Of a DNA stretch of 64,000 bases, positions 12,809-12,993 are shown piece after piece (the first letter of the stretch is position 1; each line of letters starts with the position of its first letter). The DNA is taken from IMG/VR virus record IMGVR_UViG_3300014208_000024, positions 64,001-128,000 of that record; one strand, written 5' to 3'. The notes below the pieces were generated by a model. The model did no database searches, was not told the DNA's origin, and worked only from the letters and a program-made list of their open reading frames with translations. Source of the stretch: a virus (lineage: Duplodnaviria; Caudoviricetes). The translations under genes were made by a program, and so were the position numbers.

Positions 12809-12993
12809 TAGCTGCTGGAGGAATCGAACCTACAACCCTGGATAACTATTTCCAGAATTTAACTCCATCATTTCGCAATGTGTGCTACACATTGTTTTTT
12901 TACATGTTTTGCAAACTTTACTCACAAACAACTACAGCTGATTGTTGTTTGCTTTCATCATTCACTCCACAATCTGAAACGTGTTAAGCAGCC
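12809..12993 (-). ncRNA. 185-nt RNA with tRNA-like acceptor and T arm and a structured interior
   Basis: GGCTGCT/AGCAGCT, GTAGG-TTCGATT-CCTCC; hairpins GCAAACAAC/GTTGTTTGT, CAATGTGT/ACACATTG, CTGGA/TCCAG. Confidence 0.65.

Follow-up and report, generated by a model that had tools for sequence, protein, structure and literature searches.

A 185-nt tRNA-ended RNA in a giant-phage operon

Comparison of syntenic phage loci indicates that the 185-nt tRNA-ended RNA described here is a real, conserved structured RNA gene that is under selection as an intact fold. It is encoded on the minus strand of a 64,000-nt stretch of phage DNA (the window; positions 64,001 to 128,000 of IMG/VR record IMGVR_UViG_3300014208_000024), which is part of a genome of 372,283 nt with 28.7% GC. 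The earlier note on this DNA, made from the letters alone, had its length exactly right (12993..12809, A73 included), and both the 7-bp acceptor and the T arm that it described were found. Its two hairpins of 8-9 bp were also located, but they measure 9 bp (12952-12924) and 7-8 bp (12894-12876). What that description lacked was a D-like arm of 4 bp (12983-12968) and the weak helix around hairpin 1. The features are collected in Table 1.

Table 1. The 185-nt RNA, its parts and its surroundings in window coordinates
Feature	Position	Strand	Support or remark
Whole RNA gene, 185 nt, G1 to A73 discriminator	12809..12993	minus	CM matches in L063, L054 and L056; identical in L062
Acceptor stem, 5′ strand; partner 12816-12810	12987..12993	minus	100% of cells paired; two-sided changes in 5/7 pairs, four sequences
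D-like arm, 4 bp, loop of 7-8 nt	12968..12983	minus	A-U to G-C change in L056
Weak helix P2 around hairpin 1 (12965-12960 with 12916-12911)	12911..12965	minus	4-6 bp possible in 4/4; GUGUG/CACAC in L056; outside the pair-count control
Hairpin 1, 9 bp, palindrome CAGCUG in loop (12940-12935)	12924..12952	minus	Homolog alignment
Hairpin 3, 7-8 bp, loop UAGC(A/U) (12887-12883)	12876..12894	minus	Two-sided changes in 3/7 pairs in the three closest sequences; 6/7 with L056 fitted
Hairpin 4, 9 bp, abutting T stem; loop AAUAGUUA (12850-12843), core UAG(C/U)U	12834..12859	minus	Two-sided changes in 5/9 pairs; 7/9 with L056 fitted
T arm (12833-12817), canonical UUCGAUU loop	12817..12833	minus	One U·C mismatch, in the window genome only
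Pth2-like gene, upstream synteny anchor	13175..13552	minus	PF01981, E 1.7e-8
RidA-family gene, downstream synteny anchor	12193..12636	minus	PF01042, E 3.6e-22; missing in RNA-bearing L056
Probable operon promoter, Bacteroidota type: TTG, 21 nt, TAnnTTTG	13641..13672	minus	Read from sequence; upstream of Pth2-like gene
Short T-arm-first element (YrlA-like permuted order)	7690..7765	minus	Sequence match; 13 nt in common with the hairpin-4 loop segment

The acceptor, GGCUGCU/AGCAGCU, consists of 7 bp that include G1·U72 and C3-G70. CAA directly follows A73, and CCA is not encoded. The D-like loop carries no GG (G18G19) in any of the four homologs, and a canonical D/T elbow is therefore unlikely. 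The strong internal structure that had been proposed is borne out by a folding z of -2.5 (3 of 200 shuffles folded as well) and by covariation far above the controls.

Homologs were sought by walking out from Pth2 and RidA homologs to the syntenic slot. Three further distinct copies lie in the same place (L063:9788-9973, L054:10541-10726 and L056:10470-10661), and a fourth, in L062, is identical to the window copy. The four distinct sequences are 185-189 nt long and share 51-80% pairwise identity, and six helices are kept in all three syntenic homologs. A homolog covariance model, which the earlier note had called for, was built from three sequences and recovered the L056 copy without guidance (45 bits, E 6e-7; 27.5 bits for the next best match). 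In the unfitted alignment of the three closest sequences, 94.3% of cells pair, compared to 35-44% when the register of the same alignment is slid, and two-sided changes occur in 16 of 41 pairs compared to 6.4 in shuffles; these controls rest on few sequences and are thus not p-values. The two-sided changes fall in five of the six helices, the D-like arm joining them only after L056 is added. Fitting L056 to the model gives two-sided changes in 27 of 41 pairs, but the fit itself biases the alignment towards the model. Across homologs the stems turn over around constant loop cores. In the acceptor, the letters change freely but remain paired, which argues against a synthetase identity. Lack of conservation had been named as what would count against the element; instead, the RNA is conserved with covariation in the homologs.

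Several other features of the locus were considered and set aside. Pairing of 12968-12960 with the T arm, present in the single-sequence MFE structure, has no support from the homologs, and a helix P3 enclosing hairpin 3 is inconsistent in register among them. A plus-strand terminator-like match at 12875-12895 is hairpin 3 read in reverse, and its T run is shorter in the homologs. The GGAG-ATG-ATG start of a mini-ORF is not kept in the homologs.

The RNA is a new, uncatalogued family of narrow range, and the earlier statement that it fits no known class holds: its fold is conserved and it has no Rfam or ARAGORN match. The Rfam scan that had been proposed gave no match to it at gathering score or at E up to 10, and none to the homologs at E 0.05. 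Among the relatives examined, the RNA is missing from L055, L068, L097, L099 and L101. L056, which has it, and L099, which does not, are near-identical sisters in a neighbour-protein tree (support 100/100), so the gene was gained or lost recently. Outside the clade, BLAST, pattern and CM searches returned no homolog. BLAST against GenBank phages gave T-arm and tRNA matches only; the exact shared-hairpin pattern gave one viral and 50 metagenome contigs, chance matches that have no tRNA-like flanks; and the hairpin-1 pattern gave 28 viral matches, none in the context of the RNA. Gapped loop-plus-T-arm patterns gave 0, 27 and 53 matches, none of which scored as a homolog, the best one (L162) being the 3′ end of a tmRNA-like gene. 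The CM search of 38 more distant phage records and ~50 Pth2 loci produced only weak matches (≤28.5 bits), and neighbour-protein scans of viral and bacterial collections produced nothing. The element at L103:8341-8501 may be a distant cousin.

Genomic setting

The gene lies in a minus-strand run that comprises the Pth2-like gene (PF01981), two anticodon-less mini-tRNAs, a tRNA with a 6-nt loop, the 185-nt RNA, a second long tRNA-framed element and the RidA-family gene (PF01042). The motif TTG-N21-TAnnTTTG at 13672-13641 fits the Bacteroidota promoter consensus, and this suggests both the host group and transcription of the run as one operon. The 372-kb genome contains 48 ARAGORN tRNA calls, two of them with a CUA anticodon, and also codes for TROVE/Ro60 (19255-20760, ~6 kb from the RNA gene), RtcB and a CCA-adding-type nucleotidyltransferase; a PF01743 domain was found in it. 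The RNA-bearing phages encode tRNA-Ser(GCU). Genome-wide recoding of TAG was ruled out by the coverage of long ORFs (68.6% versus 69.9%).

Loop cores and their complementarity

The three hairpin loops have closely similar cores. AG(C/U) occurs in 12/12 loops (three loops in four sequences) and full AGCU in 9/12, with CAGCUG in loop 1 of all four sequences, UAGC(A/U) in loop 3 and UAG(C/U)U in loop 4. The only core changes across the four sequences are AGCU to AGUU and AGCA, and CAGCUG is never altered. The earlier note had singled out AAAUAGUUA as the key motif, which the homologs do not support: the homologous loop reads AGUAGCUA, UAGUAGCUUC or UAGCU, which leaves UAG(C/U)U as the sole conserved part, and the syntenic sites of L054, L056 and L068 contain no element of the 7690 type. 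The AAUAGUUA loop is lineage-specific. The hairpin said to be shared with the 7690-7765 element does have 13 identical nucleotides plus CCAG there, but the 7690 copy forms only a 4-bp stem with a 9-nt loop. Nineteen different 13-mers of the 185-nt RNA recur elsewhere in the genome, so what sets this match apart is only its place in a second tRNA-like hairpin (a rough post-hoc estimate of p about 0.01). The 7690-7765 element is a possible cross-pairing partner.

Loop 1 pairs with itself over 6-8 bp (about -9 to -13 kcal/mol for the free duplex), and the loops also pair with one another (5-6 bp for loops 1 and 4, 4-5 bp for 1 and 3, and 3-5 bp for 3 and 4). In each homolog all loop pairs beat shuffled loop letters (p 0-0.009 for length and ≤0.0005 for energy), in a test to which complementarity and the repetition of a single motif, palindromic by chance, would look the same. 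The C-to-U change in loop 4 of the window maintains its self-pairing via G·U, and the loop then self-pairs by A-U and G·U alone (duplex +1.0 kcal/mol). In two of the four sequences loop 3 is UAGCA, which breaks its own self-pairing. As CAGCUG is invariant in four sequences, the data fit loop pairing and ligand binding alike. The shared cores could have come from internal duplication. Other tRNA-framed RNAs of these phages have loop palindromes of their own (GGCC, GUAC, CGUACG and GUGCAC). Palindromes occur in five of 14 of their loops compared to 7% in shuffles, with 0/100 shuffles as high, a rough figure from sequences that are partly related. These different palindromes suggest that the recurring property is self-complementarity and not one sequence.

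Proposed mechanism and its main competitor

The comparison shows the fold, the conservation of the loop cores and the loop complementarity. We regard it as reasonably probable, and as the best explanation, that this RNA on a tRNA frame does not decode, is processed and associates with itself by kissing loops; the processing, the loop-loop pairing and the role of the oligomer are inferred. The RNA would be cut from the Pth2-RidA operon transcript as a tRNA is: RNase P would make the 5′ cut, the 3′ side would be trimmed back to A73, and the phage CCA-adding-type enzyme would then add CCA. Such tRNA-like processing is what the 7-bp acceptor, the T arm, A73, the lack of an encoded CCA and the phage CCA enzyme point to. 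The tRNA ends would thus be tags for processing and stability, not charging signals. Once freed, the RNA would present three mutually pairing loops with one AG(C/U) core. The simplest contact would be a CAGCUG:CAGCUG kiss between two molecules, and further contacts of 4-6 bp with loops 3 and 4, intra- or intermolecular, would lead to a dimer or higher oligomer. In the weakest step of the scheme, the oligomer may serve an operon concerned with tRNA stress, as a scaffold or counter-defence RNA that is accessory and can be exchanged. The Pth2-like gene, CUA tRNAs, RidA, Ro60 and RtcB, together with the patchy distribution, point indirectly to a role in counter-defence against translation stress.

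The same loops could instead belong to a multivalent sponge or decoy, which we consider possible but unlikely, with the three AG(C/U) loops serving as repeated sites for an RNA-binding protein, a toxin RNase or the anticodon of tRNA-Ser GCU. Repeated GGA loops are the binding sites in CsrB and RsmZ. A sponge would agree with the retention of AG(C/U) in every loop when just nine of the 12 keep AGCU, and with AGC to AGU as the sole core change, since AGC and AGU are exactly both codons of the phage-encoded tRNA-Ser(GCU). Furthermore, UAGCA is complementary to U33-A37 of this tRNA, and a counter-defence function is consistent with the patchy presence of the gene. Sequence-specific toxin RNases of the MqsR type would be a candidate target; MqsR cuts at 5′-GC-3′ (PMC9636575). 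In contrast, the loops range from 4 to 14 nt with differing flanks, unlike a fixed protein motif, and loop 1 keeps a full 6-nt palindrome, beyond what codon matching needs. The T-box UGGN is not conserved, loop 4 of the window has no GC, and the neighbouring tRNA-framed RNAs use other palindromes. For kissing loops, the preferred reading, complementary loops are conserved across the four homologs.

A bolder version of self-association, which we think improbable, is that the RNA may be a natural three-armed 'nanostar', whose tRNA ends would release and stabilise it and whose loops would polymerise into a cage or condensate inside infected cells. Such an assembly might take in the 7690 element with its copy of the loop, shelter phage tRNAs or absorb a host defence that targets tRNAs.

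Comparison with tRNA introns, leaders and tmRNA

Lak and other megaphages carry oversized 'intron-containing' pseudo-tRNAs (Devoto et al., 10.1101/356790), and the reading given to them would make the present gene a tRNA with an unrecognised intron that is spliced to a decoding tRNA. We hold this to be very unlikely. The 5′ and 3′ tRNA halves are in the usual order, the phage has RtcB and the Lak phages provide a precedent (10.1101/356790), but ~1,050 single in-silico excisions per homolog yielded no ARAGORN tRNA in three of the four and three discordant anticodons in L056. No 5-bp anticodon stem with a 7-nt loop, as in decoding tRNAs (RF00005), arises consistently, directly or after one excision. 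GG is missing from the D loop, and the loop adjoining the T arm is 8, 8, 10 or 5 nt long. Group I intron models of Rfam gave no match at E up to 10 in the window region or at 0.05 in the homologs.

A cis-acting leader or processing element controlling the downstream RidA gene is still less likely: the RNA does end ~30 nt ahead of the RidA start in L063, but L056 has the RNA without RidA, L055 and L101 have RidA without the RNA, and another RNA gene intervenes in the window and in L054. A T-box leader was rejected, as UGGN follows hairpin 3 in only two of four sequences, the downstream gene varies and Rfam gives no match.

Least likely of all is that the RNA is a phage tmRNA in miniature, adding ANNNQL to stalled proteins, or else an antagonist of tmRNA that lacks a tag, as in phage DS6A. 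Like tmRNA (RF00023), the RNA has an acceptor with A73, a T arm, no anticodon and a long internal domain; in the window genome there is an Ala codon with a nearby stop, and a Pth2-like gene lies within the operon. Short tmRNA forms without a CDS exist, of ~65 nt and tmRNA-like sequence (PMC11915505). Known tmRNAs are about 260-430 nt long and require G3:U70 (PMC5041485). At 185 nt, the present RNA is half to two-thirds as long, and its pair 3-70 is C-G, C-G, U-A or G-C in the four homologs and never G3·U70; the earlier note had rightly seen that this pair is missing. It also has no GG in the D loop, no GAC ahead of the T arm and none of the H2/pseudoknot layout of tmRNA.

The GCA..TAG frame (ANNNQL*) does exist, at 12952-12932 within hairpin 1, but as a tmRNA-like tag it fails. 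Across the four homologs it translates as KANNNQL*, KLNNNQL*, NINNNQLNIVYN* and DSKQLLC*, with ends QL, QL, VYN and LLC and no Ala-rich ending. The GCA resume codon occurs in one of four and is base-paired in a stem, and the stop occurs in two of four. In L063 an AAC-to-AAT change is paired with a compensating change on the other strand of hairpin 1, showing that the stem is conserved and not the peptide. RF00023 did not list the RNA even at E 1, and ARAGORN and RF00023 detected no standard tmRNA in the 372,283-nt genome. As a positive control, ARAGORN finds ordinary ~355-nt tmRNAs in distant Pth2-carrying phages, so detection works in this sequence space. No smpB was found in the phage genome, and a host copy could serve. 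On this comparative evidence, the 185-nt RNA is not a tmRNA, nor a new half-size one.

Related systems and significance

The closest parallels are with orphan structured RNAs. The manA RNAs of Photobacterium and cyanophages, <200 nt in length, form oligomers or cages via kissing loops (10.64898/2026.07.01.735769), and in OLE the loop L9.3 changes between GGCC, GAUC and AGCU, which supports pairing across chains (10.1101/2024.12.08.627333). Like manA, GOLLD, ROOL and OLE, several of which are phage-borne, the present RNA has short complementary or palindromic loop cores (AGCU in OLE L9.3), and GOLLD and ROOL are often near tRNA islands. Unlike them, it has no Rfam similarity to this group, possesses tRNA ends of its own and is only predicted to oligomerise. 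In synthetic RNA nanostars, palindromic kissing loops drive condensation (PMC11567899). These resemble the 185-nt RNA as single strands with a multi-arm junction, self-complementary loop tips and flanking purines, but they are engineered, with long arms and a 6-bp GC-rich kiss per arm, whereas only loop 1 is so strong here.

As a general type, phage RNAs in which tRNA ends enclose an insert that does not decode have already been glimpsed in Lak phages (10.1101/356790). The Lak pseudo-tRNAs likewise have a tRNA frame around a conserved unclassified insert and lie in a giant-phage tRNA array with CUA suppressor tRNAs. At the level of architecture, and in contrast to them, the 185-nt RNA has a covarying three-arm insert with matching loops and no consistent excision. 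Its distinctive feature is the presence of three matching loops in one RNA. Oversized tRNA-like genes of giant phages are usually dismissed as pseudo-tRNAs or enigmatic introns; here the intact fold is under selection, with cassette-like gain or loss between near-identical phages. This lends support to the idea that tRNA ends are a general scaffold with which giant phages express non-coding RNAs. At 185 nt the RNA is easily transcribed, making it a small test case for self-assembly of the manA/GOLLD type.

Other tRNA-like elements

YrlA Y RNA is also built on a tRNA-mimic module, and the phage TROVE gene lies ~6 kb away. YrlA has a permuted T-acceptor-D order and a GNCGAAN0-1G Ro60 motif (PMC4201824), neither of which is found in the 185-nt RNA: its arm order is normal and its conserved CGA(A/U) has no upstream G of the motif. 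A better Y RNA candidate is an element upstream of TROVE, at about 20900-21010 (minus) in the window, about 4340-4460 in L054, about 1060-1180 in L056 and about 1460-1580 in L063. This conserved element begins with the T arm and has a stem, resembling an acceptor, that is capped by a loop; it has no Rfam match at gathering score. A motif like its 5′ end, AGTGG..GAGTTAC.TCG, occurs at about 24049, 34760, 35078, 46550, 47880 and 48999 (minus) of G000:C1, and in several tRNA clusters the copies stand directly ahead of isolated 3′ tRNA halves or T arms, resembling DNA-encoded Y RNA-tRNA chimeras.

Several further tRNA-framed elements were noted. The window element at 11546-11753 (minus) is framed as a tRNA but interrupted by a long insert at the anticodon region, and ARAGORN calls it Lys, counting 115 nt as an intron; it has kin at L055:1325-1536 and L101:1309-1519. 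A second conserved family of ~166-nt tRNA-framed RNAs (L054:10729-10895, L099:656-821 and L101:125-290) has GGCC and GCGC palindromes in two loops and occupies the same operon slot as the 185-nt RNA. In more distant phages, tRNA-framed RNAs adjoin CUA tRNAs at L103:8341-8654, L104:9682-9811 and L105:10424-10563, and one of their loops can be UUACGUAA, GUAC or CGUACG, which may represent a palindrome switch. Ordinary phage tmRNA genes are located at L109:1918-2272, L116:2628-2982 and L129:3358-3709, a few kb upstream of Pth2-like genes and CUA tRNAs. The Pth2-like homolog P0007 at L099:63-476 translates only with TAG as a residue, consistent with an early amber codon. At L056:15439-15554, a tRNA-Ser-like gene has ~24 nt of its anticodon arm duplicated internally. 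Finally, short direct and inverted repeats (GGACA / TGTC(C/T)) lie just upstream of a CUA tRNA at 11420-11530 (minus) in the window, at about 2690-2775 in L068 and at about 4165-4255 in L097.
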